The notes beneath the pieces are model-generated. The model saw only the letters and a program-made list of their open reading frames with translations. It ran no database searches and had not been told where the DNA came from. From positions 33,707 to 97,706 of IMG/VR virus record IMGVR_UViG_3300045988_134682: DNA of 64,000 nucleotides. The stretch is one strand, 5' to 3'. Below, piece by piece: positions 1,489-64,000 of this stretch (positions are counted from its first letter, which is position 1; the number at the start of each line of letters is the position of its first letter). Origin of the DNA: a virus. The position numbers were made by a program, and so were the translations under genes.

Positions 1489-1570
1489 GCTGGTATGGTG
1501 GAACGGTATACACGGCGGACTTAAAATCCGCTGGCTCCGAGCCTTGCGGGTTCGAATCCCGCTACCAGCA
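1489..1570 (+). tRNA. tRNA-Leu(TAA): tRNA-Leu (anticodon TAA), type II with long variable arm
   Basis: Acceptor gctggta/taccagc, anticodon stem gcgga/tccgc with loop cttaaaa, variable hairpin ggctccgagcc, T-arm cgggttcgaatcccg. Confidence 0.85.
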
Positions 1571-1655
1571 CTAACTAAAAATCAATAGGAGGGATAATAT
1601 ATGTTCTATCATATTGGTACAGTCTTCTAAGTCCTTGGAAAGGAGGATTTAGATA

Positions 1656-1976
1656 ATGAGTAGAAGTTATAAAAAAACGCCTTGGGCTGGAGACAAAAAA
1701 GGCAAAATAAAAAAACGGATTGCAAATCAGACAGTTCGTTCTTGGCTGAAACAGCATCCAGATGTAAAACTTTCAAAAAGCGATTTTAAAAAAATTTATG
1801 AAACTTGGGATATTTGTGATTATGGATATAAAATGACTTGGGAAGAATATTGGGAAAGTGAAATTAGACATTATTATTGGTTTAAAATGAATTTTCCTGA
1901 AGCAAAGAAATCTAAGTATTGTAAGTATCCAGACAAAAAAAAACTTATAGACAGTGGTACAAATGGTATAAAATGA
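1656..1976 (+). CDS. hypothetical protein (basic, Trp/Tyr-rich)
   Basis: ORF with strong RBS ggaaaggagg 9 nt upstream. Lies between tRNA genes. Confidence 0.5.
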   Translation: MSRSYKKTPWAGDKKGKIKKRIANQTVRSWLKQHPDVKLSKSDFKKIYETWDICDYGYKMTWEEYWESEIRHYYWFKMNFPEAKKSKYCKYPDKKKLIDSGTNGIK

Positions 1977-2010
1977 AATGATTTGATTTTTATAAAATTT
2001 TTTGATATAA

Positions 2011-2021
2011 TAAATATAGAA
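2011..2021 (+). promoter_or_regulatory. extended -10 promoter (TGaTATAAT) likely driving tRNA-Gly
   Basis: ttgatataat followed by the conserved atatagaaagttaa motif seen downstream of other promoters in this window. Confidence 0.4.
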
Positions 2022-2090
2022 AGTTAAAGAACTTTCCTCTTTTTAAATTTCTCTTAAAAATAGCAAATGTTTTAAACATTTGCTAAATAT

Positions 2091-2162
2091 GCGGGTGTGG
2101 TGTAGTTGGCAACATACGTGCCTTCCAAGCATGTGTCACGGGTTCAAATCCCGTTACCCGCT
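2091..2162 (+). tRNA. tRNA-Gly(TCC): tRNA-Gly (anticodon TCC)
   Basis: Acceptor gcgggtg/tacccgc, anticodon stem cgtgc/gcatg with loop cttccaa, T-arm acgggttcaaatcccgt. Confidence 0.85.
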
Positions 2163-2473
2163 CTAAAGAGCCATAAACTGCAAAATAATTTATATCTTTA
2201 AATGGATATTATTAATAAAATTACATACATATTAAAATATGATGATGCAATGCTTCTCAGTAAACTAAATAGGCTGGGCTCTTGATATATAAAGCAGTAT
2301 TAGTAAAAAGAAGCATCTATTTAATTTTTAATGGTTTTATAATTTACATTAAGGCATAAACAGCAATCGTTGATTAAATTCAAGCAAATATTTTATTATA
2401 TGAGAATAAAACATATTTTTGAAAAAGGATGATTATTATGCCTTGAAAAAAGGGCATTTTTGCCCCTCTTTTT

Positions 2474-2546
2474 GTGCCAGTAGCTTAGTTGGCAAAGCAC
2501 CGGACTTTTAATCCGGTTACCGCGGGTTCAAGTCCCGCCTGGCACA
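2474..2546 (+). tRNA. tRNA-Lys(TTT): tRNA-Lys (anticodon TTT)
   Basis: Acceptor gtgccag/ctggcac, anticodon stem ccgga/tccgg with loop cttttaa, T-arm gcgggttcaagtcccgc. Confidence 0.85.
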
Positions 2547-2560
2547 CTTTTTAAAGGAGA

Positions 2561-3034
2561 ATGAATATGAAAATTATGACATCTTATTTTTATCAGATTC
2601 GATTTTTTAAACCTTATATGATTCCTCTTAGTACAGCTAAATGGGATCCTAAATGGTTTCATAAAAGCCAAGGTCAAGATTATCAATTTAAAGATAAAAA
2701 TGGAGTGTGGAATGGTTTAAGAGCAGAGCCATTTGCGCCAGGTCCTTTATGTGAAGGATTATGCTCTGGTCCAAAAGGATGTGCAAGTGCCGCAAATGAT
2801 TGTATGTTTTTAAAAACCTATAAAATGCAATTAGAGCATTTAGATTTTCAAGATATTCTTTCAAGGATTGAGTCTATTGGATATGCTGTTAAAGAGCAAG
2901 AAAAATTCCAAGAGGAACCAGTTGTAATCTTAATTGTGCATGAAGCTTTTGGAAATCATTGTTCAGAACGTGAGCCAATTCAAGAGTGGTTTGCGGAGAA
3001 TGGGTATCCGATAGAAGAGTTTCAGGCGGGATAG
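2561..3034 (+). CDS. hypothetical protein
   Basis: ORF with RBS aaaggag. Its stop codon overlaps the 5' end of tRNA-Cys by 10 nt. Confidence 0.5.
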   Translation: MNMKIMTSYFYQIRFFKPYMIPLSTAKWDPKWFHKSQGQDYQFKDKNGVWNGLRAEPFAPGPLCEGLCSGPKGCASAANDCMFLKTYKMQLEHLDFQDILSRIESIGYAVKEQEKFQEEPVVILIVHEAFGNHCSEREPIQEWFAENGYPIEEFQAG

Positions 3035-3098
3035 CCAAGTTGGTTAAGGCGGCGGTCTGCAAAACCGCTATTCAGGGGTTCGAGTCCCCTTCCCGCCT
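3025..3098 (+). tRNA. tRNA-Cys(GCA): tRNA-Cys (anticodon GCA)
   Basis: Acceptor ggcggga/tcccgcc, anticodon stem gcggt/accgc with loop ctgcaaa, T-arm aggggttcgagtcccct. Confidence 0.85.
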
Positions 3099-14030: not shown

Positions 14031-14840
14031 ATGAAAGATATTAGCTATTATTGGGCAGATAAATCTCAAAGAGCAATTATTGCACAAGAGCATACTAAGC
14101 AAATGAATGAGCAATTTGCTAGTGAGATTGCGGAAAGTGTAATGAATAGTAAAATTTATAGCAAAGATTTTAAAGCAACAACGCCCGCAAGAAATTTAGA
14201 GGAAGCAGATATTGCTCTTGATGCTGTTGGAAGTGTTGAAGCTATTGTAGCTTGCGATTCTACAGATGGAAAAGTTGCGGTTCTTAATTTCGCTTCATAT
14301 AAAAATCCTGGCGGAATGTTTATTAATGGGTCTCGTGCTCAGGAAGAATGTCTGTGCCATGAATCTTTTCTTTACAACGTATTAAGCCAAATTCCAAATT
14401 ATTATGATTGGAATGAAAAACACAAGAATCGTGCTTTATATGAGAATAGAGCAATTTATTCTCCAAATATCAGATTTGAGCATTCTGGCATTGAAAAATA
14501 CTGCGATGTAATTACTTGCGCCGCACCTAATTTTACTGCCGCTGCAAAGTATTGCAACGTAGATAGAAAAGAAAATAAAAAAGTTCTTGAATCAAGAATT
14601 CGATTCGTTTTTGAAGTAGCAAAACAGAATCAGGTTGATACTCTCATTTTAGGGGCTTTTGGATGCGGAGTGTTTGGACAGAATGCAGATGATGTTGCAG
14701 AAATTTTTATCAATCTGTTAGTTACAGATTATGCAACTGAATTTAAGAAAGTAATTTTCGCAATTCCGATTATCAATAATGATTCTATCAATTACAGTAA
14801 ATTTCAGAATATGTTTGATGAATTGTTAGAGGAGAATTAA
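14031..14840 (+). CDS. PARG-like macrodomain protein (DUF2263 / bacterial-type poly(ADP-ribose) glycohydrolase family)
   Basis: Signature NFASYKNPGGMFINGSRAQEECLC (GGG-x6-8-QEE) and glycine-rich ILGAFGCGVFGQN diphosphate-binding loop. Confidence 0.6.
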   Translation: MKDISYYWADKSQRAIIAQEHTKQMNEQFASEIAESVMNSKIYSKDFKATTPARNLEEADIALDAVGSVEAIVACDSTDGKVAVLNFASYKNPGGMFINGSRAQEECLCHESFLYNVLSQIPNYYDWNEKHKNRALYENRAIYSPNIRFEHSGIEKYCDVITCAAPNFTAAAKYCNVDRKENKKVLESRIRFVFEVAKQNQVDTLILGAFGCGVFGQNADDVAEIFINLLVTDYATEFKKVIFAIPIINNDSINYSKFQNMFDELLEEN

Positions 14841-14841
14841 T

Positions 14842-15051
14842 ATGAATTCTTTTACTATCACAATTACAAATTGCCTTGATTGTCCAGACCATGATGTTCG
14901 TCCTATTTACACTCCAGATTCTTGGGACCATGAGGAAGGATGTTATTGTAAACTTGCTAAAGATGTAAATGGATATGACAAATTAGTTGCAGGAGACGAT
15001 TGGCATTTAAGAAGATATACTGACATTCCAGATTGGTGTCCAAAATTATGA
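14842..15051 (+). CDS. small Cys-rich hypothetical protein
   Basis: CLDCPDH...CYC...WCP pattern. Start overlaps the upstream stop. Confidence 0.4.
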   Translation: MNSFTITITNCLDCPDHDVRPIYTPDSWDHEEGCYCKLAKDVNGYDKLVAGDDWHLRRYTDIPDWCPKL

Positions 15052-15356
15052 CGTATATTTCTGAATATTTTTATAGTAATTGCTTAATCGAAGCTATTAA
15101 AGCTAAGATTAAGCATCCTATAAAAGTAAAAATAAAATATATTCCAGCAAGATTAAATGAAGTATTTTGTCCGCATTTAATGTGGCATGATGGTGAATAT
15201 ACTTATGATTTTTGGGCTTGCGGGCATTTAAAGCCATATCAAATTTTATGGCATAAAGGTAAGATAAGAAAAAACGAATATGATTATTATGATAAATGTA
15301 TAAAAACTTTAAAAGAATGGAAAGAAAGAGGTAAACAAGATGCCGGTAAGAGATGA
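15033..15356 (+). CDS. hypothetical protein
   Basis: ORF overlapping both neighbours (operonic). Confidence 0.4.
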   Translation: MVSKIMTYISEYFYSNCLIEAIKAKIKHPIKVKIKYIPARLNEVFCPHLMWHDGEYTYDFWACGHLKPYQILWHKGKIRKNEYDYYDKCIKTLKEWKERGKQDAGKR

Positions 15357-16215
15357 TTTAGGTACTCGTATGAAAACCTTTTATGAAAATATTCCTAAAA
15401 CTCGACTTATGAGAAGAGTTCCAGTAGCAATTAGGCTGGACGGCAAGGCGTTTCATACTTTTACAAGAGGTTTTCAAAAGCCATTTGATTTTGTGCTAAT
15501 GGATACAATGCAACAAACAATGAAATATTTATGTGAAAATATTCAAGGATGTGTATTGGGATATACTCAGTCTGATGAGATTACATTGATTCTTGTTGAT
15601 TATAAGAAATTAAATTCTGCTGCATGGTTTGATTATGAAGTTCAGAAAATGTGCAGTATCGCAGCAAGTATGGCTACAATGGCGTTTAATAGATTTTTCA
15701 TGTATGAATATGAAGAGTTTAATAGATGGGTTAATGAAGGAAATCCAACAGATGAAGATAGACGATTAAATGATATTTATTATGATGCGATGTGTAAAGG
15801 TGCAATGTTTGATGCACGTTGTTTCAATATTCCAAAAGAAGAAGTAACTAACCTCATTTATTGGCGGCAACTTGATGCAACAAGAAATAGTATTCAAATG
15901 GTTGGACAAGCTCATTTTTCACATGATGAGCTTCAAGATAAAACTTGTAATATGATTCAAGATATGTTAATGACCAAGTATGGCATTAACTGGAATGATT
16001 TTACAACACCATGTAAACGAGGCACTGCATGTATTAGAATTGGAAAAAAAGTAACTGAAAATATCAAAAGAGAACCTCAACCTTTTGGAGAAGATAAAGT
16101 TACAACTACAATTATTGAAGAAAGACCTATCTGGGTTATTGACAAGAATATGCCTATTTTAAAAGGCGAAGACCGCAAATATGTTGATGATTTAATTTAC
16201 ATAGGAGAAGAATAA
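15340..16215 (+). CDS. Thg1-like protein (tRNA-His guanylyltransferase family, 3'-5' nucleotidyltransferase)
   Basis: VPVAIRLDGKAFHTFTRGFQKPFD...VLGYTQSDEITLIL aligns with the Thg1/TLP core motifs (RxDG+xFHxF, KPxD, YGQSDE). Confidence 0.75.
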   Translation: MPVRDDLGTRMKTFYENIPKTRLMRRVPVAIRLDGKAFHTFTRGFQKPFDFVLMDTMQQTMKYLCENIQGCVLGYTQSDEITLILVDYKKLNSAAWFDYEVQKMCSIAASMATMAFNRFFMYEYEEFNRWVNEGNPTDEDRRLNDIYYDAMCKGAMFDARCFNIPKEEVTNLIYWRQLDATRNSIQMVGQAHFSHDELQDKTCNMIQDMLMTKYGINWNDFTTPCKRGTACIRIGKKVTENIKREPQPFGEDKVTTTIIEERPIWVIDKNMPILKGEDRKYVDDLIYIGEE

Positions 16216-37760: not shown

Positions 37761-39659
37761 ATGTCTGATAATTATGGTGTAAAAGACATAAAAACTTTGG
37801 AAGGTATCGAAGCCATCAGACTTAGACCTGGTATGTATATAGGCTCAATCGGACCAGATGGAGTTAGACATATTACTCTTGAAATTATTTCTAACGTAAT
37901 TGATGAGTATTTAAACGGATATTGTACAAAGTGTAATATTGAAGTAACAGAAGATGATATGGTAAAAGTTTCTGACGATGGACGTGGTGTTCCTTTTGGA
38001 AAAGCCGCAGATGGTTCAGAAACTCTTGAAAATATTTTTACTAAACTTCATACAGGAGCTAAATTTGATAGTTCTGGTAAAACTGGATATAATACATCTG
38101 GTGGTATGAATGGTGTTGGTGCAAAAGCGACAAATGCATTGTCTGATAAATTTATTGTCACTTCTAAAAGAGATGGTAAAATTGCAACAATGACATTTGA
38201 AAAAGGTGAAAGAAAAAATTTTAAAGTTGAAAAGTATGCGGAAAAAGATACTGGAACAACAATTACTTTTCATCCAGATATTGAGATTTTTAAAGAAGGA
38301 ATCTCGCTTGATTATGACAGTTTAAAAAGACAAATTCAGGAATTAGCATATCTTTCTCCTGGATTAACTTTTACATTAAAATATAAAGACAAAGCTGAAG
38401 ATGTAATTGTTTCTCAGAATGGTATTCTGGATTATATTCAAGATTTGAATAAAAAGAAAAATGCTATTACATCTGTTTTTTATGCCGAAGCTTCCGAAGA
38501 TAGGATTGGTGTAAAATTAGCAATGCTGTATAACGATAGTTATACTGATACCTATAAATTATATACAAACTCAATTCCAAATACAGCTGGAACTCATCTT
38601 ACTGGATTTAGAACTGCATTAACTTCTGCAATTAATAATTATGCAAGAGAGAATAAACTTCTTAAAGAGAAAGATTCTAATATTGTAGGTGATGAGTTAA
38701 AAGAAGGTCTTGTATTAGTTCTTTCTTTTGTGATGCCAGACCCAGTCTTTTCAGGTCAGACAAAAGAGAAACTTGATTCAAGTGAAGGACGTACAATGGT
38801 CCAGAAGCTGGTATCAAAAGAAATCGCAATTTGGCTTGACAGCCATCCTAATGATGCAAAAGCAATTATCAATAAAGCTTTATTAGCACGTGCCGCAAGA
38901 GAAAAAGCTAAAAAAGCTAAAGAAACAGTTCGTAAAGCAGACGTGAAAAAAAGAGCAGTAATGCCTGGTACATTAGCAGATGCAAGTTCTCGAAATAGAG
39001 CTTCTTGTGAAGTATTTATTGTAGAGGGAAAATCTGCGGCCGGTTCAACAAAAGAAGCCAGGGATAGAGCTACCCAGGCTGTGTTCCCCGTAAGAGGAAA
39101 GATTCTTAACGTATTGAAGGCAGACCTCGCGAAGGCATTAAAGAACGCAGAGATTGATGGTATGATTACTGCTTTTGGACTTGAAATTAAAGATGGAAAA
39201 GTAATCGTAAATAAAGATAAATTACGTTATGGCAAAATTGTTATTACAGCCGATGCGGACGTTGATGGTAGTCACATTAGAGCATTGTTCTTAACCTTTA
39301 TTTGGAAATTTGCTCCGCAGTTAATTGAAGATGGATATATTTTTGCGGCAGTTCCTCCACTTTATAAAGTTACACAGGGAACTAAAATTACTTATCTGAA
39401 GGATGATGCGGCTCTTGAGGAGTTCAGAAAGACAGCTAAAAAGTCTTTTGAGCTGGGTCGTATGAAGGGTCTTGGCGAGATGGACCCGTCTGAAATGGCT
39501 GAAACAGTTATGAATCCAGAAACGAGAACTCTTAAACAGATATGTATGGAAGATGCAGAAGAAGCTGCTAAAACTTTCATGGGATTGATGGGTGAGTCAG
39601 TTGTTTATAGAAAGAAATTTATCGAAGAGAATGCGTGGAGAGCAAATATTGACGTATAA
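37761..39659 (+). CDS. gyrB: type II DNA topoisomerase ATPase subunit (GyrB/ParE-like; T4 gp39-like)
   Basis: GHKL ATPase N-terminus (LRPGMYIGS; GLHH-type region). TOPRIM EVFIVEGKSAAGS. C-terminal PLYKV...GLGEM motif. Confidence 0.85.
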   Translation: MSDNYGVKDIKTLEGIEAIRLRPGMYIGSIGPDGVRHITLEIISNVIDEYLNGYCTKCNIEVTEDDMVKVSDDGRGVPFGKAADGSETLENIFTKLHTGAKFDSSGKTGYNTSGGMNGVGAKATNALSDKFIVTSKRDGKIATMTFEKGERKNFKVEKYAEKDTGTTITFHPDIEIFKEGISLDYDSLKRQIQELAYLSPGLTFTLKYKDKAEDVIVSQNGILDYIQDLNKKKNAITSVFYAEASEDRIGVKLAMLYNDSYTDTYKLYTNSIPNTAGTHLTGFRTALTSAINNYARENKLLKEKDSNIVGDELKEGLVLVLSFVMPDPVFSGQTKEKLDSSEGRTMVQKLVSKEIAIWLDSHPNDAKAIINKALLARAAREKAKKAKETVRKADVKKRAVMPGTLADASSRNRASCEVFIVEGKSAAGSTKEARDRATQAVFPVRGKILNVLKADLAKALKNAEIDGMITAFGLEIKDGKVIVNKDKLRYGKIVITADADVDGSHIRALFLTFIWKFAPQLIEDGYIFAAVPPLYKVTQGTKITYLKDDAALEEFRKTAKKSFELGRMKGLGEMDPSEMAETVMNPETRTLKQICMEDAEEAAKTFMGLMGESVVYRKKFIEENAWRANIDV

Positions 39660-39755
39660 TGATGCAATGTATCTGGCCGTTGGAGTTGAAGACGGCTGGA
39701 TACATGTAACTCCAAAAGTGTGGAAAGAATATTTAAAAGCTAAAGAGGTTATTAA

Positions 39756-40115
39756 ATGGAAACAAAAATATTTGAATTTGTACCAGAAGAGTCAGAACAC
39801 TTTGAATCCCAATTTTTAAAATGGTATGATGCGGGCAAGCCTAAAAATAATTTTAATGAGGCTTATGATTATAGTACAATAACTCAATTTCTTATATGGG
39901 AGTATGGATTATCAGATGAGTCATATGATAAACCTCGTAGATGGAATCAAATTGTAGAGGGAGTTGTTTGTATTAATGGACGCTATTTTTCTGTTTGCTA
40001 TGATAGAGGTTTAACAGAAATGCAAGAAAATGATTATGACTTTGATGATAATATTACTGAAGTTGAAAAACGCACAGTTTTAAAAGAGGTAACAGAATGG
40101 AAGAAAAAAAGATAA
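39756..40115 (+). CDS. hypothetical protein
   Basis: ORF. Confidence 0.4.
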   Translation: METKIFEFVPEESEHFESQFLKWYDAGKPKNNFNEAYDYSTITQFLIWEYGLSDESYDKPRRWNQIVEGVVCINGRYFSVCYDRGLTEMQENDYDFDDNITEVEKRTVLKEVTEWKKKR

Positions 40116-40336
40116 TTGAATTAGCTGGAGATTTTTCTCAAAAACCAGACATGGCAGCAATTACCAAAATAACTCCTATAAAAGATGGGGATAAAGTGAT
40201 TTTACATTTCGATATAAAGAAATATGATTTAGATATAGATACTGTTACTCAACAATTTAATCTATGGCAGCAATGTTTTCCACATAATGATGTAATTGGA
40301 GATTTGTGCAATACAGACATTGAAGTAAAGGAGTAA
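40097..40336 (+). CDS. hypothetical protein
   Basis: ORF overlapping the upstream stop. Confidence 0.4.
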   Translation: MEEKKIIELAGDFSQKPDMAAITKITPIKDGDKVILHFDIKKYDLDIDTVTQQFNLWQQCFPHNDVIGDLCNTDIEVKE

Positions 40337-40338
40337 AT

Positions 40339-40785
40339 ATGATATTTTATACAGACGGTTCTGCGAGTCCAAATCCAGGCCCAGGTGGTTTTGGAGTTGT
40401 TCAAGTCGACACAGAAGGTAATATTTTAAGCACATATTCCAGTAGACAGGATAATACGACTAATAATGAACAGGAAATGAAAGCTATTCTTTACGCAGCC
40501 TGTCAAGGAGTATTAGCTAAAGAAGACGTATTAATTTACTCTGATTCTGCATATGCAATTAATACTTTTTCAAACTGGATGTATAATTGGGAAAGAAATG
40601 GATGGATTAAAGGAGATGGAAAAGTACCTGAAAATTTAGAAGTTGTGCAGGCTTTTTTTGAAGTATCCAAAATGATTGAAGTCACTTTTGTAAAAGTAAA
40701 AGGACATTCTAAAAATCCATTCAATGAGCTTGCAGATAATCTAGCAACTGGCAAGGTTAAACCTGGTAACTATTTGACAATTTAA
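40339..40785 (+). CDS. rnhA: ribonuclease HI
   Basis: Motifs IFYTDGSASPNPGPGGFGVV, YSDSAY and KVKGHSKNPFNELADNLA. Confidence 0.8.
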   Translation: MIFYTDGSASPNPGPGGFGVVQVDTEGNILSTYSSRQDNTTNNEQEMKAILYAACQGVLAKEDVLIYSDSAYAINTFSNWMYNWERNGWIKGDGKVPENLEVVQAFFEVSKMIEVTFVKVKGHSKNPFNELADNLATGKVKPGNYLTI

Positions 40786-40802
40786 TTTTTTTATGGTAAT
40801 AT
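40774..40802 (+). promoter_or_regulatory. sigma-70-like promoter (TTGACA -17- TGgTAATAT)
   Basis: ttgaca 40774-40779 followed by an extended -10 element. Confidence 0.4.
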
Positions 40803-40809
40803 ATTATAT

Positions 40810-41088
40810 ATGGATAAGAATAAAGAACAGTTAAAAAAACAATTACTACAATTTGTTAAATCAGTTGAAGAACCTATGACAAAAGAAGAATATGATAAAT
40901 ATATGAAAGAATATCATAAACAAAATCCTCTTTTAAATACTGGTTCTGGTTATTTATATATTCCATCAGAAGATGTTGTTGTTAGTGCTGATTCAATTTA
41001 TAATTTTATAGAAAGAGTTATAGATGAAAGTTTGATGGATGTAAAAATGCAATATTATAAAGAATTATTTGATAAGGGAGAGTCTTAA
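40810..41088 (+). CDS. hypothetical protein
   Basis: ORF. Confidence 0.4.
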   Translation: MDKNKEQLKKQLLQFVKSVEEPMTKEEYDKYMKEYHKQNPLLNTGSGYLYIPSEDVVVSADSIYNFIERVIDESLMDVKMQYYKELFDKGES

Positions 41089-43466
41089 TGAGTGAGAATA
41101 TTATTCAAGTAAATATTAAAGATGAAATTGAACAGAGTTTACTTGATTATGGAATGAGTATCATTTCAGATCGAGCTTTACCTTCAGCAGAAGATGGATT
41201 AAAACCTGTTAATAGACGTATCTTATATGATATGTTTGATAAAGGTTTTATGAATAATAAGAAATTTGTAAAGTGTGCTCAGCCAGTCGGAGATACAATG
41301 GGTAGATTTCATCCGCATGGTGATAGTTCTATCTATGGTGCATTAGTATGGATGTCACAGGAATGGAATATGAGATATCCACTCATTTCTTGGCATGGTA
41401 ATAATGGAAGCCGAGATGGTGATGAACCGGCTGCATATAGATATACAGAATGTAAGCTTTCTAAATTTGGAGAAGAAATGCTTGCAGATATTAAAAAGAA
41501 TACAGTAGATTGGATGAATGCTTATACAGATGAAGAGCAGGAGCCAATTTATTTACCTGGCCGAATTCCAAACCTTATTGTAAATGGTACTTCTGGAATT
41601 GCATGGGCAATGGCTTGTTCATTTGCGCCGCACAATTTATCAGAAGTTATGGATGCAGCTATTTATCTTTTGGAAAATCCAGAATGTGATATTAGGGAAC
41701 TCTTAAACTATATTAAAGGTCCAGATTTTCCAACAGGTGGATTACTTATTAATAAAGATGAACTTGAGACAGCTTATCTTACAGGAAAAGGTCGTGCAAG
41801 ATTAAGAGGTGAATATACAATCGAATCTTCCAAAAACGGAGATAGTATTGTTTTTACTTCAATTCCTTATAAGGTATCTAAAGAGACATTAACAGTCGAG
41901 ATTGATAAACTCTGTGAAGAAGGAGAACTTAATGGCGTAACAGCTATTAGAGATGAATCCAACAGAGATGGTGTACGTTTTGTAATTGAACTTGGTAAAG
42001 GAATATCTGCGGCACCGATTATCGCAAAATTATTCAAATCTACACGTCTTGAAGATACATATTCATTCAATCAGGTTGCGCTGGTTGATAAGAAACCAAG
42101 ACTTCTGAACATTAAACAGCTTTTGGAAAATTATATTGAGCATCAGAAAGATGTTCTTTTAAGAAAGACTAAATTCGATATTGAAAAAGTACAAGCAAGA
42201 ATTCATATTCTTGAAGGATTGTTAATTGCACTTGAAGATATTGATAATATTATTGCTTTAATTAAGAAATCTGCCAGTGCGGCTGCCGCAAAAGAAGCTT
42301 TAATGAATAAGTATAATCTTAGTGAAGCACAGGCAAAAGCAATTCTTGATATGAAATTGAGTAAATTGGCTCGTTTGGAATCAGTTGAAATTCAGACTGA
42401 AAAAGATAATTTACTTAAAAAAGAAGCTGAATTAAATCAGATTCTTTTAAATCCAGTTCCAGAGATGAAAAAAAACTTCACAGAGATTAAAACCTTATAT
42501 GGAGATGCTCGTAGAACCACAATCACACAGGTAAATGTCACAAAAGAAGAAAAAGAGATTGAATATGTAGAACCTGAAAAATGTGTTGTTGTAATGACAG
42601 AAGACGGTTTAATTAAACGTATTCCTTCTACTAGTTTTAGAACTCAGAGAAGAAACGGAAAAGGTGTTAAAACACAAGGTGATGTTGTTAAAACTACCAT
42701 CCGCACAAATACTATTGATTCTCTTATGGTATTTACAACAAAAGGAAAAATGTATCGTATCCTTGTAAATGATATTCCAGTAGGTACAAATGTATCTAAA
42801 GGTCAGTCAATTAAGTCTTTAATTGCGATGGATACTGATGAAGAACCTAATTTAATTTATTCTATTTATAGAGATACTGATGCAAAATATTTATTATTTG
42901 TAACAAAAAACGGAATCACAAAGAAAACCTCCTTAGAGGAATATACAAATACAAAGAAAAAGACTGGAATTATTGCTATTAATCTTAAAGAGGATGATAC
43001 ATTAGTATCTGTAAATCTTGTTAAAGATGAAGATTTAGTTCTCTTAACCTCTAACGGTATGGGAATTAAGATTAATTCTGGAGAGATTTCAGCTTCTGGT
43101 AGAGCAACAGCAGGTGTTAAAGGAATCACTTTGAAGAAAGATGATTTTGTAGTTGCTGCATTACCAGTTCGTAATAAGACAGATTACATTGCAATCTTTT
43201 CATCTAAGGGTCTTGGAAAGAAGATTGAAATGGATGAATTAGTTCTTCAGAAACGTGCGGGAAAAGGTTTGATTATTTATAAGCCAACAGATGAAACAGG
43301 AACAGTTATTTCTGGTGCTTTAATTGCGGACGAGGATAATATTCTTGTTATTGGCAAATTAAGTTCAATTTGTATTTCTGCAAAAGACATTCCTCTTACA
43401 AGTAGAATTGCAACAGGTAATCAGTTAATTAAAAATGGTGAAATTACTTCTGTGACAAAAATTTAA
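41088..43466 (+). CDS. gyrA: type II DNA topoisomerase breakage-reunion subunit (GyrA/ParC-like; T4 gp52-like)
   Basis: DRALPSAEDGLKPVNRRILY and active-site AAYRYTE motifs. Beta-pinwheel-like C-terminal repeats. Confidence 0.85.
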   Translation: MSENIIQVNIKDEIEQSLLDYGMSIISDRALPSAEDGLKPVNRRILYDMFDKGFMNNKKFVKCAQPVGDTMGRFHPHGDSSIYGALVWMSQEWNMRYPLISWHGNNGSRDGDEPAAYRYTECKLSKFGEEMLADIKKNTVDWMNAYTDEEQEPIYLPGRIPNLIVNGTSGIAWAMACSFAPHNLSEVMDAAIYLLENPECDIRELLNYIKGPDFPTGGLLINKDELETAYLTGKGRARLRGEYTIESSKNGDSIVFTSIPYKVSKETLTVEIDKLCEEGELNGVTAIRDESNRDGVRFVIELGKGISAAPIIAKLFKSTRLEDTYSFNQVALVDKKPRLLNIKQLLENYIEHQKDVLLRKTKFDIEKVQARIHILEGLLIALEDIDNIIALIKKSASAAAAKEALMNKYNLSEAQAKAILDMKLSKLARLESVEIQTEKDNLLKKEAELNQILLNPVPEMKKNFTEIKTLYGDARRTTITQVNVTKEEKEIEYVEPEKCVVVMTEDGLIKRIPSTSFRTQRRNGKGVKTQGDVVKTTIRTNTIDSLMVFTTKGKMYRILVNDIPVGTNVSKGQSIKSLIAMDTDEEPNLIYSIYRDTDAKYLLFVTKNGITKKTSLEEYTNTKKKTGIIAINLKEDDTLVSVNLVKDEDLVLLTSNGMGIKINSGEISASGRATAGVKGITLKKDDFVVAALPVRNKTDYIAIFSSKGLGKKIEMDELVLQKRAGKGLIIYKPTDETGTVISGALIADEDNILVIGKLSSICISAKDIPLTSRIATGNQLIKNGEITSVTKI

Positions 43467-43495
43467 GTGGGATTTATTTCCCACTTATCTTTTCT
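43467..43495 (+). terminator. terminator-like hairpin
   Basis: gtgggatttatttcccac stem followed by a T-rich run. Confidence 0.5.
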
Positions 43496-43508
43496 AAAAG
43501 GAGAATAA

Positions 43509-45487
<1,979 letters not shown>

Positions 45488-46156: not shown

Positions 46157-47149
46157 ATGATTACTGTAATTATAGCAATTTTTTGTCTTATATTGGGGGC
46201 TGGGTTAGTATATCTGTTTATGCAACCAAAAGTCAAAGTTACTCAAAAGGAAAATAAAGAAATTCTTGAAAAGAATAAAGCCGTTCAATTTGAGTTACAA
46301 GCAATGGAGCAAAGAACGGATTACTTAAAAGAACAATATGAACAAAAATTGCAAGAATATAAACAATTAAAACAAGATGTTGATAAAGAATATAAGGCTT
46401 CAGAAGAAAGTGTGAAAAAATATTATCAACAAATGCTTGATTTTTATAAACAAAAATTTCATACTGATACAGAAGAAATTCATGCTATTTTCATGGACAC
46501 AAAACATAGTTTAGAAGATAGTTATGAAGAATTAGCTAAAGATTTAGTACAAGATTATCTGGATAAAAAGCAAGAAAGCGTCCAAAAGATAAAGAAATTA
46601 AATGAAAAAATTCAATTTGAAGAATCTCAGCTAGAAGATTTGCGGCATAAGGTAGAGGCCGCAGTTGCATATGATAAACGCAATGAAGAAAATAAGAATA
46701 AAACTGATTTTTATAAATTAAATTTAACTCAAGATGATTTAGATGAAATTTATGAATTAAGGAAAATTATTTCTCATTTTAGAAATCCTGAACCTGTAAA
46801 TAAGGTTATATGGAAAACATATTATGAGAAACCTTATACTGATTTAGTTGGTAGAGTAATTGGTTCTGGTGTTCATTGCGGCATTTATAAAATCACAAAT
46901 TTACAAAATAATATGTGTTATGTCGGACAGAGTACGAATATTGCTGAACGTTGGAAACAGCATATTAAGCGTGGATTGGGCGCAGATACTCCGACCCGCA
47001 ATAAACTTTATCCTATTATGCAGGCTGTTGGAGTTGAAAATTTTTCATTTGAAATCATTGAAGAATGTACAAAATCTCAATTAAATGATAGAGAAGATTA
47101 TTGGCAAGATTTTTTTAAAGCAAAAGAATTTGGTTATAGTATAAAATAA
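46157..47149 (+). CDS. membrane-anchored coiled-coil protein with C-terminal GIY-YIG nuclease domain
   Basis: N-terminal TM helix, then about 200 aa of coiled coil. C-terminus GIYKITNLQNNMCYVGQSTNIAERWKQHIKRG...YWQDFF. Confidence 0.55.
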   Translation: MITVIIAIFCLILGAGLVYLFMQPKVKVTQKENKEILEKNKAVQFELQAMEQRTDYLKEQYEQKLQEYKQLKQDVDKEYKASEESVKKYYQQMLDFYKQKFHTDTEEIHAIFMDTKHSLEDSYEELAKDLVQDYLDKKQESVQKIKKLNEKIQFEESQLEDLRHKVEAAVAYDKRNEENKNKTDFYKLNLTQDDLDEIYELRKIISHFRNPEPVNKVIWKTYYEKPYTDLVGRVIGSGVHCGIYKITNLQNNMCYVGQSTNIAERWKQHIKRGLGADTPTRNKLYPIMQAVGVENFSFEIIEECTKSQLNDREDYWQDFFKAKEFGYSIK

Positions 47150-59727: not shown

Positions 59728-61890
59728 ATGAGCAAAAAGTGGTTTAATTGTCATAACCATACAGAGTATTCAAACTTACGTCTTTTGGATTCAACCAATC
59801 ACCCAAAAGATTTAATCAATAAAGCAATCGAATTAGGACTTAGTGGTATCTGTATAACTGACCATGAAGCCCTTTGTGCGCACGTTGAAATAAATAAAAT
59901 TGCAACAGAATTAAGAGAAACAAATCCTGATTTTGTGATTGGGTTAGGAAATGAGATTTATTTAACTGATACAAGAAATCATGGTCAGAAATATTATCAC
60001 TTCATTTTGATTGCTAAAGATGCAATCGGTCATAAAGCGTTAAGAGAGTTAAGTTCTACAGCTTGGTATTATTCATATATGGATAGAGGTATGGAAAGAG
60101 TTCCAACCTTAAAAGATGAATTAACTGAGATTGTAAAACATTATAAAGGTCATTTAATTGCAACAAGTGCATGTATTGGTGGAGAATTATCTTCATGGTC
60201 TTTATTATATGCAGAAGCATTAAAGGTAAATGACCAAAAGATGGCAATGGAATTTCAGAAAAAGATTCAAGATTTTATGGATTTTGTTTTGGATTTATTT
60301 GGAGATGATTTTTATATTGAATGCGCTCCATCTAATAAAGAAGATCAAATGACTGTAAATTCTCAGTTATTTAAAATCGCAACTGCATATAATGTTAAAA
60401 TGGTTGTTGGAACTGACTCTCATTATTTAACAAAAGAAGATAGAATGGTTCATAAAGCATATCTTAATTCAAAGGGTGGAGAGCGTGAAGTTGATGACTT
60501 TTATGAATTTGCAAGACTTATGGATAGTGATGAAGTAGAAGAATTATTATCTCCATGTTTTCCAGAAGGATATGTAGATGTAATTTTTGAGAACACTTTA
60601 GATTTACAGAATAAAATTGAATATTATAGTCTTTTTCATAAACAAGATATTCCATATGTAGAAGTTAAAGATTATCCAAAAGTAAGAGGATTTAAACAGT
60701 ATCCACATTTATCTGCGATGTTAATGGATGATGATATTCAGAATCGTTATTGGGTAAATGAGTGTTTAAATCAGCTTGAAAAGCTTGAGAAAATCAATGA
60801 TAAACGTTATCTTGATGAGCTTGAAGAAGAAGCACGAGTTAAAAGTATTATTAGTGAAAAACTTGAAACAAATATGTTTCGTTATCCAAATACACTTCAG
60901 CATTATATTGATATGATTTGGGATTGTGGTTCAATGGTAGGCGCTGGTCGTGGTTCCAGTTGTGCAGCACTTAATCATTACCTTATGGGAATTACTCAGT
61001 TGGATCCTATCGAGTGGGATTTACCTTTCTTCCGTTACCTCAACGAAGAGAGAATTGAGCTTGGCGATATTGATATCGACATATGCCCGTCTAAACGTCC
61101 AGAGATTCTTCGTAAAATTAAAGAAGAGCGTGGAAAAATGTTCTATGATAATATCATGGAATGGGCGAAGAAAAATCTTGGATGTACTCTTGTAGCAACA
61201 TTTGGTACAGAAGGAACTAAATCTGCAATTCAGACAGCTTGTAGAGGTTATAGAAGTGAGGATTATCCAGAAGGAATTGATGTTGATGAAGCTCAGTATA
61301 TGAGTTCGTTAATTCCAGAAGAGAGAGGATTTTTATGGACAATTAAAGAAGTTGTTTATGGAAATCCAGAAAAAGGTCGCAAGCCTGTTAAGGCATTTGT
61401 CAATGAAGTAAATAAATATCCAGGTTTATTAGATATTATTGTAGCTATTGAAGGTCTTGTAAACCATAGAGGTTCTCATGCATCTGGTGTAATTTTATTT
61501 GGAGATGACCCATTTGAGCATAGTGCTTTTATGAAAACTCCAAAAGGTGAGATTACTACTCAGTTTGACTTACATGATGCAGAGTATATGGGATTAACAA
61601 AATATGATTTTCTTGTAACTGAGGTTCAGGATAAGTTGGTTCAAACTATTCAATTACTCCAAGAGGATAATGAAATTGAGCCAGAATTAAGTTTGCGGGA
61701 AGTCTATGACAAATATTTTCATCCTAATGTTTTACCTTTAAATGATCCGAAGATTTGGGATGCATTAGGTAAAGTATCTGTTATTAATACTTTTCAGTTC
61801 GATTCTCAGGTTGGCGCGCAGGTTGCAAAGAAATTAAAACCTCAGAATGTATTGGAAATGGCGGATGCGAATGGGTCGACAATTGGCCCT
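59728..61890 (+). CDS. dnaE: DNA polymerase III alpha (DnaE-type) exon 1: PHP domain and polymerase core through the RPGP-equivalent region
   Basis: PHP CHNHTEYSNLRLLDS...ICITDHEAL. FQFDSQVGAQVAKKLKPQ region aligns with DnaE GVFQLESRGM...LQP. The ORF-track stop at 61906-61908 lies 18 nt into the proposed intron. The exon end at 61890 is modelled, not certain. Confidence 0.7.
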
Positions 61891-62943
61891 TACACACTTT
61901 ACCTCTAATCAGAGGGGTCGCGGTTTTCCAGTTTTTGGAATATTATTGGTAATAATTACCAAACCGCAGGCTAACGGGGAAGTCTAACCGCGTAATGGCG
62001 AAGATAATCCCGTGGGAAATTAATGTATAAAATTTTGGACAATGGCAGTTAATTCATCGGCTATCTCATTTATATAATTATGAAAAGGAGGTAGTAATAT
62101 GATACATTATATTTACTGCTATACGAATAGAGAAAATAATAAACAATATATCGGACAGACTAATAATATAGAAAGAAGAAAAAAACAACACTTACAAGAT
62201 AGTATTCATTGTCATCAAGGGCATGAAACATCTTATAATTCACCTTTTCATTCCGCAATTAGAAAATATGGAATTGATAATTTTAATTTTGAAATTTTAG
62301 AAATTATCGAAACGGACAACTGGGATGAAGTAAATGAATTAGAAACTAAATATATTAAAGAAAAAAATAGTTTATCTCCAAATGGATATAATTTAAAGGC
62401 GCAAGGAGAGGCAAATAGAGGGTTAAATATTAGTAAGCTTCCCATTGAGCAAATTTTATCTATTATTAGTGACTTAAAAAATGGTGTTAAAATAAAAACT
62501 ATTGCTGAAAAAAATAATTTATCTCGTTCTTATATTTCAGATATAAATAATGGTAGATGCTGTAAAATAGAAGAAGTTAGTTATCCTATTCAACAAAATA
62601 GAATTACAGAAGATGAATATTTAGATATAATTGATATGATAAAAAATACTAATTATTCATTGCGTAAAATTGCTGAATATTTTAATAGAAATAGAGATAC
62701 AATAGAAAAAATTAATAAAGGTAATCAAGCAATAGTTCGAGCTTTATATGATGAAGATTTTCCGATTAGAAAAAATGCCAGAAAAGGATATACATTAAAA
62801 CCTGTAGAGACTATCCCGGGTTAGACCGGGAGTAGGACTTCTATTGATACGAAGTTCGAAATGGTGTGCTCGTAAGAGTAAAAGATAGTCCAGACCACAA
62901 ACGGCTCACCCAGCCGGCAAGAAATTGTAGATGGTAGGTAATG
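61891..62943 (+). mobile_element. group I intron (T4 td-like core) carrying a GIY-YIG homing endonuclease ORF
   Basis: A 190-nt structured 5' part and a 119-nt 3' part flank the ORF. Candidate P1 pairs ggccct (61885-61890) with ggggtc (61914-61919), with a U:G at the splice site. gataatcccgtgggaaattaatgta resembles the td-intron core (gacaatcccgtgctaaattgta). The intron ends ...ggtaatG. The downstream exon frame opens right after. Confidence 0.5.
62099..62824 (+). CDS. GIY-YIG homing endonuclease (intron-encoded)
   Basis: N-terminus IYCYTNRENNKQYIGQTNNIERRKKQH (GIY...YIG...R...E/N). C-terminal helix-turn-helix-like DNA-binding region. Own RBS aaaggagg. Confidence 0.75.
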   Translation: MIHYIYCYTNRENNKQYIGQTNNIERRKKQHLQDSIHCHQGHETSYNSPFHSAIRKYGIDNFNFEILEIIETDNWDEVNELETKYIKEKNSLSPNGYNLKAQGEANRGLNISKLPIEQILSIISDLKNGVKIKTIAEKNNLSRSYISDINNGRCCKIEEVSYPIQQNRITEDEYLDIIDMIKNTNYSLRKIAEYFNRNRDTIEKINKGNQAIVRALYDEDFPIRKNARKGYTLKPVETIPG

Positions 62944-64000
62944 AGACTTATGGGCGAAGATGGAGAAGAACGCCCGATGGATAAATATTATCGTTTTAAA
63001 CAAAACATTCAGTTATGGTATGATGAAATGACAAAATTTGGTCTTACCGAAGAAGAGCAGAAAACTCTTGAGCCTTACTTTAAGAGTTCTTATGGAGTTC
63101 CGCCTTCACAGGAACAGTTAATGAGAATGTTGATGGACGATAAGATTTGTCATTTCACTCTTGGAGAAGCAAATGCGGCTCGTAAGATTGTTGGTAAAAA
63201 ACAAATGAATAAAATTCCAGCCTTACATGAAAAAGTATTGGCACAAGCGGCAAGTGAAAAACTTGGTCAGTATGTATGGAAATGTGGAGTTGGTCCGCAG
63301 ATGGGTTATTCATTTAGTGTTATTCATGCACTTGCTTATAGTTTTATTGGTGTTCAAACGTTATATATTGCAACAAATTGGAATCCTATTTATTGGGATT
63401 GTGCATGTTTAATTGTAAATAGTGGTTCACTTGAAGATAATAATGAGTTAGAGATTGATGAGGATGATGAATCTGAATCTATCTCTGTAAAGAAAACAGC
63501 TTCAACTGATTATGGAAAAATTGCAAAAGCGATGGGTGAAATTATATCTGCGGGAATTAAAATGAGCCTTGTTGATATAAATAACTCAGATTATGGATTT
63601 AAACCTGATGCTAAAAATAATCAAATTCTTTATGGAATGAAAGGTTTATTGAATGTCAGTGATGCAGTAATTGATGATATTATCAAAAATAGACTTTATA
63701 TTTCACCTAAAGACTTTTTATTAAAAGTACATCCAAATAAACAAGCAATGATTTCACTTATTAAAGGTGGAGCATTTGATACAATGATTGACCGCAAGAT
63801 TTGTATGGGTTGGTATATTTGGGAGACTTGTGATAAGAAGAAACGAATTACATTACAAAATATGGGAGGTTTGATTAAATATAATCTTCTTCCAGAAAAA
63901 AATGAACAGCAAATTATGGCGAGAAGAGTTTATGAATTTAATCGTTATTTAAAATCTGTTTGTAAAATTAAGGGTGATACAACTAATTATCATATAGATG
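62944..64000 (+). CDS. dnaE: DNA polymerase III alpha exon 2 (partial; continues beyond window)
   Basis: Frame open from 62938 to the window end. YGVPPSQEQLMRMLMDDKICHFTLGEANAARKIVGKK aligns with DnaE YGIILYQEQVMQIAQ...LGGADMLRRAMGKK. GYSFSVIHALAYSFIGVQTLYIATNWNPIYW aligns with [28 protein letters not shown]. Confidence 0.65.

Follow-up and report, generated by a model that had tools for sequence, protein, structure and literature searches.

Does the DnaE-type DNA polymerase gene of this phage encode one protein, or two separate pieces? The gene (dnaE) lies on the plus strand at the end of a 64,000-nucleotide (nt) stretch of the virus record IMGVR_UViG_3300045988_134682 (hereafter the window), and its first open reading frame (ORF), 59728..61908, stops after 726 amino acids (aa) at a TAA codon (61906-08). 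DnaE coding sequence resumes about 1 kb farther on and stays open to the window end, and an ORF for a GIY-YIG nuclease lies between the two parts. A preliminary description of the locus had proposed all of this, reading it as a group I intron with a GIY-YIG homing endonuclease that splits a DnaE-type gene. That reading is supported here by a covarying RNA core, by likeness to the td intron of phage T4, by an intron-less allele in a related contig (L125) and by alignment of the nuclease with I-TevI. From these comparisons we consider it very probable that 61877..62938 is a mobile, self-splicing, td-like (IA2-type) group I intron, whose endonuclease would target intron-less alleles such as that of L125.

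The interruption and its exact borders

Pfam matches assign a PHP domain, the polymerase III (Pol III) alpha core and the beginning of the finger domain (profile positions 14-68) to the 726-aa ORF, and the later part of the finger profile (97-164) together with an HHH_6 (HhH) domain to the frame that reopens near 62940. The preliminary description had the polymerase resuming in another frame, but the two exons form one genomic frame (62941-59728 = 3x1071), and the 1062 nt between them (3x354) hold 57 in-frame stops. In the nearest annotated phages, at 40-42% protein identity (Enterococcus phages VRE9_4, H1 and EF1, and YorL of Bacillus phage SPbeta), the protein is continuous across the site (...NSLMRLM...). 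Closer relatives were found by searching a large protein collection with the spliced polymerase model; the site is uninterrupted in 14 of the 14 aligned close homologues, including P0001 (98% identity), all of which have ...ADANGLMRLMGEDGEE... and read ...LEMADANGLMRLM-GEDGEERPMDKYY... (that is, ADANGLMRLM) across it. The insertion site is inside a block, N-G-L-x-R-L, that is invariant in this phage polymerase family; alignment with Thermus aquaticus Pol III alpha (3E0D) places the site roughly 7 residues upstream of the motif RPGP. Its placement in a highly conserved DnaE segment near RPGP, as first described, is therefore right as to position, although at the place equivalent to RPGP this family has GLMRLMGEDG.

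The comparison with intron-less alleles that had been proposed at the outset could be made with contig L125, which encodes P0001 and whose site is uninterrupted. From window position 61066 onward, its DNA is 95-96% identical to the window in both exons and colinear with it (window 61066-61874 = L125 6004-6812; window 62939-63321 = L125 6815-7197), and it is without exactly 61877..62938. At the site L125 has AATGGTCTAATGAG and the window AATGGGT/TAATGAG (slash at the insertion); over a longer stretch, L125 GCAAATGGTCTAATGAGACTT corresponds to the window exons joined at 61876/62939, GCGAATGGGT followed by TAATGAGACTT. The spliced junction in our model is ...AAUGGGU/UAAUGAGA..., with exon 1 ending in U and the intron in G. 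Moving the junction by even one base alters the invariant Leu codon, and the intron is therefore 61877..62938. The terminal G of the intron is G62938, the last base of the insertion as set by the intron-less allele. The junctions modelled in the preliminary description, 61890/62944, disagree with both the L125 allele and the homologous proteins, lying too far downstream by 14 nt at the 5' end and 5 nt at the 3' end; the product that they imply, ...GSTIGPRLM..., has three extra residues relative to homologues and destroys the invariant GLMRLM (Leu-Met). A blunt junction at codon boundaries, 61878/62941 (GSMRLM), was also rejected, as it breaks the U/G splice-site rule and disagrees with L125.

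The sole differences adjoining the site (61875-61876 vs L125 6813-6814) are two neighboring synonymous changes: where the intron-less allele has GGT CTA, the window has GGG TTA. The changes in the intron-bearing allele create the GGGU required by helix P1, and they may affect endonuclease recognition or may be a trace of co-conversion.

Occupancy of the site varies: L125 is intron-less, and P0037, a protein from another contig, is identical to window exon 2. Closely related genomes that appear to differ in whether this site holds the insertion are the mark of a mobile intron.

Other kinds of intervening element that we considered are inteins, group II introns and insertion sequences. The insertion length divisible by three and the single frame of the exons would suit an intein, but the 57 in-frame stops rule this out. 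For a group II intron we found neither a reverse transcriptase or maturase ORF nor an Rfam group II match, and for an insertion sequence no transposase ORF in the interval (terminal inverted repeats were not searched for), while the RNA core described below is that of a group I intron. Neither protein-splicing motifs nor a structure resembling domain V/VI is present. We rejected all three on these stops, absent ORFs and RNA features and the group I core, and give them practically no chance.

RNA architecture of the probable group I intron

Features of the gene, the intron and other dnaE insertions are collected in Table 1. The 5' part of the intron carries GCUAACGGGGAA-N24-AAUCCCGUGGGAA, corresponding to J3/4-P4-P5-P4'-P6. 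The stretch gataatcccgtg (62003-14), rightly taken at first sight for td-like core, is part of this P4-P5-P4' motif, which occurs once in the window against 0.01 occurrences expected by chance. Folding, another check that had been suggested, recovered P1, the hairpins that we call X and Y, P4, P5, P7.1, P7.2, P8 and P9; folding z-scores were -2.66 (5' half) and -1.49 (3' half). In the minimum-free-energy fold P1 has 7 base pairs (bp), with U61876·G61886 as the U:G that the preliminary description had placed at the splice site. P1 and P10 are formed on one contiguous guide, which supports the borders independently. The predicted guanosine site in P7 has the same strands as in td (GACUA/UAGUC), flanked by td-like J6/7 and J8/7; all of P7, J8/7, J6/7 and J3/4 agree with td and with the consensus of the class described below, and the only helix flaw in the window copy is one bulge in the Y stem. 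The G+C content is 39-47% in the ribozyme parts and 33-37% in the exons.

An early reading of GGACU/AGUCC as P7 and of UCUAUUGA as the 3' strand of P3 (P3') was dropped on comparison with td, by which GGACUUC is the P7.2 stem and UAUUGAUAC its loop (L7.2). Members of the class usually end in CCAUUGGAAACAAUGG...ACACG, whereas the 3' domain of the window intron (62891-62938) has its P9 (CGGCU/AGCCG) and a long tail that terminates in UGGUAGG.

Table 1. Features of the interrupted dnaE gene and its intron (window coordinates), and insertions at other dnaE sites in related sequences
Feature	Position	Strand	Sequence, evidence or remarks
dnaE exon 1	59728..61876	+	Ends after the first base (T) of a Leu codon; colinear with L125 6004-6812 up to 61874
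Group I intron	61877..62938	+	1,062 nt; first base C61877, last base G62938 (omega-G)
P1 hairpin	61873..61889	+	Exon GGGU 61873-76 / guide GCCC 61886-89, with U61876·G61886; CGA/UUG extends the stem into the intron
P10 guide	61882-85	+	AUUG, complementary to exon 2 UAAU 62939-42; adjoins the P1 guide
P3, 5' strand	61893..61898	+	CACACU, pairs with GGUGUG 62863-68
Hairpin X	61902..61915	+	CCUCU aauc AGAGG; loop AUC 61908-10 complementary to GAU 62846-48 in L7.2
Hairpin Y	61917..61971	+	Branched, 55 nt, closed by G-C and U·G, abuts J3/4; fold
J3/4 (UAA) and P4 (span includes P5 and P5a)	61972..62014	+	CGGGG 61975-79 / UCCCG 62008-12; fold, td likeness
P5	61982-84 / 62003-05	+	GUC / GAU; fold
P5a	61989-91 / 61998-62000	+	CGC / GCG; fold
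P6	62015-16 / 62801-02	+	GG / CC; pairing
P6a	62020-26 / 62792-98	+	UUAAUGU / ACAUUAA; pairing; EF1 P6a covaries (UUUUAGU/ACUAAAA)
Homing-endonuclease gene	62084..62824	+	In P6a loop; Shine-Dalgarno AAAGGAGG 62084-91, ATG 62099, TAG 62822-24; 241 aa
J6/7 and P7, 5' strand	P7 62809-13	+	GACUA, identical to td; P6a', P6', J6/7 and P7 all overlapped by the end of the endonuclease ORF
P7.1	62814-31	+	UCCCGG guuaga CCGGGA; folds, covaries; mark of subgroup IA2
P7.2	62835-57	+	GGACUUC uauugauac GAAGUUC; folds, covaries; loop L7.2 kept across the class
P3, 3' strand	62863-68	+	GGUGUG, pairs with 61893-98
P8	62869-78	+	CUC guaa GAG; covaries
J8/7 and P7, 3' strand	62879-85; 62886-90	+	UAAAAGA; UAGUC; likeness to td 3' core
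P9	62902-16	+	CGGCU caccc AGCCG; recovered by folding
Candidate P9.0	62894-97 / 62932-35	+	ACCA / UGGU; read from sequence only
dnaE exon 2	62939..64000	+	Rest of finger domain and HhH domain; leaves the window unfinished; colinear with L125 6815-7197
Insertion near catalytic GDIDID	L125 4852/6004		NUMOD3 ORF in L125; HNH ORF in EF1
Insertion before LTKYDF			Several protein fragments start there
Insertion after QMG			EF1, P0002, P0008
Insertion after SFSV	L125 7197/8425		GIY-YIG ORF
dnaE interruptions in contig L003	3904-4730 and 5854-6845		

Related introns and covariation

Scanning viral contigs for the P4-P5-P4' pattern gave at least 120 loci. The 5' and 3' halves could be separated at 63 loci of this 'GCUAACGGGG' class, and 32 distinct ones, including those of the window and of EF1, were fully parsed. 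Fixed-length helix blocks with conserved anchors were aligned gap-free with MAFFT, and pairs were then counted. Among these 32 mutually related introns, standard pairs filled 97.6% of the 1,184 cells, compared with 72.3% when shuffled (0/500) and 34-47% with partners slid, a percentage in which P4 and P7 do not vary, the search pattern having required them, and in which X, Y, P7.1, P7.2 and P8 are paired by construction, having been located via complementarity between fixed anchors. The latter five nonetheless show 3-6 pair types per position (3-5 in the X stem), and overall the covariation score was 0.644 vs 0.132, with changes on both sides in 23 of the 37 pairs. P3 and P6, on the other hand, were placed without recourse to complementarity, by a rule that set fixed distances from anchors. 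P3 is 86.5% paired, with 5 of its 6 pairs changed on both sides (CACACU/GGUGUG, AUGGUU/AGCCAU, AUAUCU/GGAUAU and GUUUCU/AGAAAC, among others); P6 pairs at 100% and shows compensatory changes (GG/CC, CC/GG, GC/GC and CU/AG). P3' was assigned from this covariation and from its position, which is homologous to that in td (CGAAAU-P3'-P8). The guides likewise track their exon context: GGGU/GCCC in the window, AGCGU/GCGCU in L125, GGGGU/GCCCU in EF1 and AGGU/GCCU in contig L010.

All 32 parsed introns are without P2, the P3 5' strand beginning 3 nt after the guide, and all have the two hairpins between P3 and the UAA of J3/4. X has a stem of 4-7 bp of the form CCNNN/NNNGG; Y varies in size, its stem covaries and its closing GU..GC is invariant. 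L7.2 is conserved (UAUU-NNN-AC) save for a triplet complementary to a triplet in the X loop, and the X loop/L7.2 combinations observed are of five complementary types, AUC/GAU, ACC/GGU, GCU/AGC, GUC/GAC and AUU/AAU. The two triplets match within the same intron in 28 of 29 cases (the lone miss being due to stem parse), against a permutation mean of 14.5 (0/5000). In the modelled structure X and P7.2 would exit the same end of P3, so that a loop-loop contact is geometrically reasonable. An equation of this contact with subgroup IA's P11 was rejected, since P11 connects the extension of P7 with P6 (PMC12088405).

The class is marked by GCUAACGGGGAA...AAUCCCGUG and occurs in at least 120 viral contigs and in 84 contigs of genomes or metagenome-assembled genomes (MAGs). 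We suggest, with more doubt than confidence, that the window intron belongs to a large uncatalogued subclass of phage group I introns that is missed by the Rfam model RF00028, in which X/L7.2 kissing may be a new brace that replaces P2. The 84 genome or MAG contigs come nearly all from bins of uncultured gut and rumen Firmicutes, and the pattern there is probably phage or prophage DNA; the genome-wide pattern scan that gave these contigs returned no well-studied intron of a model organism. A blastn search of 61400-63400 against 50,697 phage records returned exon matches only, and no relative of the intron at the nucleotide level.

Points against the intron, and the power of the Rfam search

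Several observations weigh against a self-splicing intron of td type. P1 has just four exon-guide pairs. The structure is not textbook IA2, as P2 is missing and two hairpins stand where J3/4 normally has 3 nt; as to that subgroup, P7.1 and P7.2 are present, and P2 and a short J3/4 after P3 are not. The 3' half alone folds no better than shuffled sequence (z = -1.49), and we identified no experimentally spliced member of this exact class. Finally, the Rfam Intron_gpI search that had been proposed (RF00028) went against expectation: there was no match in the window at the gathering threshold, nor at E<=10 over 61700-63200, nothing in EF1, and nothing at the gathering threshold in 17 related loci.

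The gathering score of RF00028 is 50 bits, and a td control intron falls below it, at 42.5 bits and with its 3' half only. Class members without an ORF also score below it, at 32.1 bits (E = 2e-4) for L055 and 27.4 bits (E = 5e-3) for L120, with alignments that span the whole model (positions 1-253). Since both the td control and these ORF-less relatives stay under the threshold, the search has low power and its negative outcome is weak evidence. RF00028 recognizes the class weakly and cannot bridge a 790-nt insertion; its alignment puts hairpin X in P2 and the 3' strand of Y in P3, with which the covariation disagrees. A 2025 survey of Bastillevirinae introns likewise notes that phage variants escape the Rfam and GISSD models (PMC11878797). 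L120 contains two group I introns of different classes (1718-1974 and 2246-2485) about 270 nt apart; the downstream one, a canonical td-like intron, scores 70.5 bits on RF00028, and its X/Y-class neighbor 27.4.

These points have to be weighed also for the possibility that the intron has decayed, so that it no longer splices (the dnaE copy being a pseudogene) or needs a protein cofactor from host or phage in order to splice. The short P1 of four exon pairs, a P9 region that departs from the class consensus, the lack of any Rfam match whatever in the window and the unremarkable folding energy of the 3' half would all fit. Yet the core helices are all intact in the window copy apart from the single bulge in Y, the td and class consensus is kept at P7, J8/7, J6/7 and J3/4, and the ORF for the endonuclease is unbroken and retains the catalytic residues. 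Moreover, both exons are open and 95-96% identical to those of the relative, with no frameshift or internal stop, and there is no second DnaE-type polymerase ORF among the scanned ORFs of the window. We consider decay very improbable.

The endonuclease gene

The GIY-YIG ORF with its own ribosome-binding site, as claimed in the preliminary description, was confirmed: it encodes 241 aa (62099..62824) and is preceded by a strong Shine-Dalgarno sequence. Its N-terminal part matches the GIY-YIG domain (Pfam PF01541, 6e-13) and it also matches the homing endonuclease family PHROG 7168 (3e-35). Aligned with the catalytic domain of I-TevI (1MK0/1LN0; E = 4e-4), it has the equivalents of the I-TevI Tyr, YIG, Arg27, Glu75 and Asn90 in register, as IY, YIG, R (in ERRK), E (in LET) and N (in NGYN). 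The C-terminal part gives sub-threshold matches to helix-turn-helix motifs (residues 117-148 and 182-203), in a repeat architecture shared with the intron ORFs of L125 and EF1. The closest phage homologue, at 40% identity, is itself encoded within a homologous intron, which occupies a different dnaE site in Enterococcus phage EF1; the ORF of a related L125 intron is 33% identical. The ORF has a G+C content of 25.5%, compared with the 33-37% of the exons.

Over its last 33 nt the ORF coincides with P6a', P6', J6/7, P7 and half of P7.1, and because of this overlap with core helices, translation of the endonuclease and folding of the ribozyme should be mutually exclusive. A scan of the intron for promoters and terminators gave counts at chance level, with no evident endonuclease promoter. 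The candidate cleavage target is the intron-less allele of L125, ...GCAAATGGTCTAATGAGACTT....

The window encodes a second GIY-YIG protein (46157-47149, plus strand, 330 aa), with the domain at its extreme C-terminus (residues 241-328). It has a hydrophobic N-terminus followed by about 200 coiled-coil-like residues, and no DNA-binding tail after the nuclease, a layout atypical of homing endonucleases.

A free-standing GIY-YIG gene might instead have truly split dnaE into two separately translated subunits that assemble without RNA splicing, an N-terminal one of 726 aa ending in ...GSTIGPYTLYL and a C-terminal one from the ATG at 62941 (MRLMGEDG...). Endonuclease-split phage genes without introns are known, and here an in-frame ATG does stand at the start of exon 2 (62941), public gene calls start a protein within that exon (P0037, MGEDGEE) and many database homologues are annotated as fragments of 200-490 aa. 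However, gene callers yield fragment annotations for any intron-bearing gene, and no Shine-Dalgarno sequence is usably spaced from ATG 62941, as GGUAGG ends 2 nt before it. The break would lie inside the invariant NGLMRLM, and the junction-spanning Leu codon would be lost. What flanks the nuclease ORF, furthermore, is a complete covarying group I core with a guide matching both exon ends. Such a split gene is in our judgment extremely improbable.

Comparison with known systems

The T4 td intron with I-TevI is the nearest well-known parallel. The core helices follow one another in the same order in both introns, P7.1 and P7.2 standing between P7 and P3'; P4 (ACGGGG/UCCCGU) and P7 (GACUA/UAGUC) are identical, J6/7 and J8/7 are similar, and both introns use a P1 with GGGU and a U·G pair. 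Measured on a T4-type control (L124), identity to td is 33 of 44 aligned bases at J3/4-P4-P5-P4'-P6 and 57 of 86 in the 3' core. In both, the P6 loop houses a GIY-YIG gene that has a ribosome-binding site of its own, and the catalytic domains align. They differ in host gene (thymidylate synthase for td, a DnaE-type polymerase here) and in architecture, the window intron lacking P2 between P1 and P3 and having X and Y between P3 and J3/4, with pairing between the X loop and L7.2. They differ too in their response to RF00028 (42.5 bits for the td 3' half, no match for the window) and in the C-terminus of the endonuclease: that of I-TevI has a zinc finger and a minor-groove helix, and that of the window protein the helix-turn-helix repeats suggested by sub-threshold matches.

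Closer in host gene are Enterococcus phages EF1 and EF5 (MF001358, MF001361), in which an intron bearing a GIY-YIG ORF interrupts the dnaE of a 42% identical protein. That intron is of the same class (GCUAACGGGGAA...AAUCCCGUGGGAA, X, Y and L7.2 UAUUGAUAC), with its ORF likewise in the P6a loop. It lies after ...VQMG, about 125 codons downstream, so that its guide differs (GCCCU), and it has an extra hairpin after P7.2. Near the catalytic aspartates EF1 has yet another intervening sequence, which bears an HNH ORF; neither EF1 site is occupied in the window. The GenBank record of EF1 flags a 'phage intron' in dnaE, and in the annotation the EF1/EF5 ORF, flanked by two 'DNA polymerase III alpha' coding sequences, is no more than a 'hypothetical protein'.

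The group IA intron with I-BthII in nrdF of Bacillus thuringiensis, for which splicing was shown by RT-PCR, resembles the window intron in arrangement: it too is in a conserved gene of DNA metabolism, has P6a, P7.1, P7.2 and a P10 via the P1 loop, and contains a GIY-YIG ORF that begins in the P6a loop and extends over P7, although it is chromosomal in a bacterium and interrupts another gene (PMC2248736). The spacing of the nuclease motif is an unusual GIY-(X)8-YIG in I-BthII and YIY-(X)10-YIG in the window ORF. Group I introns with homing endonucleases are classical in phage DNA polymerase genes, as in SPO1, Bastille and T7-like phages (PMC3984707). By these comparisons the window element appears to be a known kind of mobile intron, at a site unused in the other database homologues examined.

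Proposed splicing and homing

We infer catalysis by the RNA, splicing in vivo, activity of the endonuclease and homing from the sequence comparisons above. In the pre-mRNA, the guide GCCC would pair with GGGU at the end of exon 1 to form P1, with U61876·G61886 at the splice site. The core (P3-P8, P4-P6 and P7) would bind guanosine in P7, and this guanosine would attack after U61876. The guide AUUG would then position the UAAU of exon 2 as P10, the terminal G62938 would occupy the G site and the exons would be ligated, giving ...AAT GGG TTA ATG AGA..., that is ...ADANG-L-MRLM..., and a full-length polymerase. The 241-aa endonuclease would be translated from its own Shine-Dalgarno sequence in the P6a loop. 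In mixed infections it would cut intron-less dnaE alleles, for example that of L125, and recombinational repair would then transfer the intron, along with exon bases that flank it, to the cleaved allele.

Other dnaE insertions and genome context

The dnaE genes of relatives are interrupted at four or five other sites (Table 1), and that of the window is occupied at ADANG/L only. The L125 intron at the SFSV site has P3 (CACACU/AGUGUG) and P7.1 in common with the window intron and is 78% identical to it over the 3' core. This sharing of P3 and P7.1, with the 78% identity, suggests that one intron lineage has moved between sites of the same gene.

Upstream of dnaE are genes for a DnaB-like helicase, a primase, a RecJ-like protein and a RecD/Dda-like helicase. 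Elsewhere on the plus strand, the window has a cluster of four tRNA genes (1489-3098; Rfam tRNA, 63-77 bits) and, at 14031-16215 and 37761-45467, genes for a protein with a microbial-type PARG domain, a Thg1-like tRNA-His guanylyltransferase, gyrase B and gyrase A homologues and an NAD-dependent DNA ligase. The PARG, Thg1-like, gyrase and ligase content is unusual for a phage replication region.

Implications

Nothing here changes the known principles of group I splicing and homing. For this phage, the polymerase would be one gene of at least 1,070 codons, rather than two fragments and a 'hypothetical protein', and the hundreds of 'DnaE' pieces of 200-490 aa from this phage clade in public databases would be exons (P0001-P0110 are examples). 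Surveys built on the Rfam group I model, which misses the class at its gathering threshold, would undercount phage introns. A DnaE-type replicase is added to the phage polymerase genes invaded by mobile introns, as a case in which one conserved gene appears to have been hit at several sites by related introns with re-tuned guides. If the subclass reading is true, at least four to five sites of one polymerase gene have been colonized, and the family would offer a natural system for intron transposition with re-tuning of the guide.

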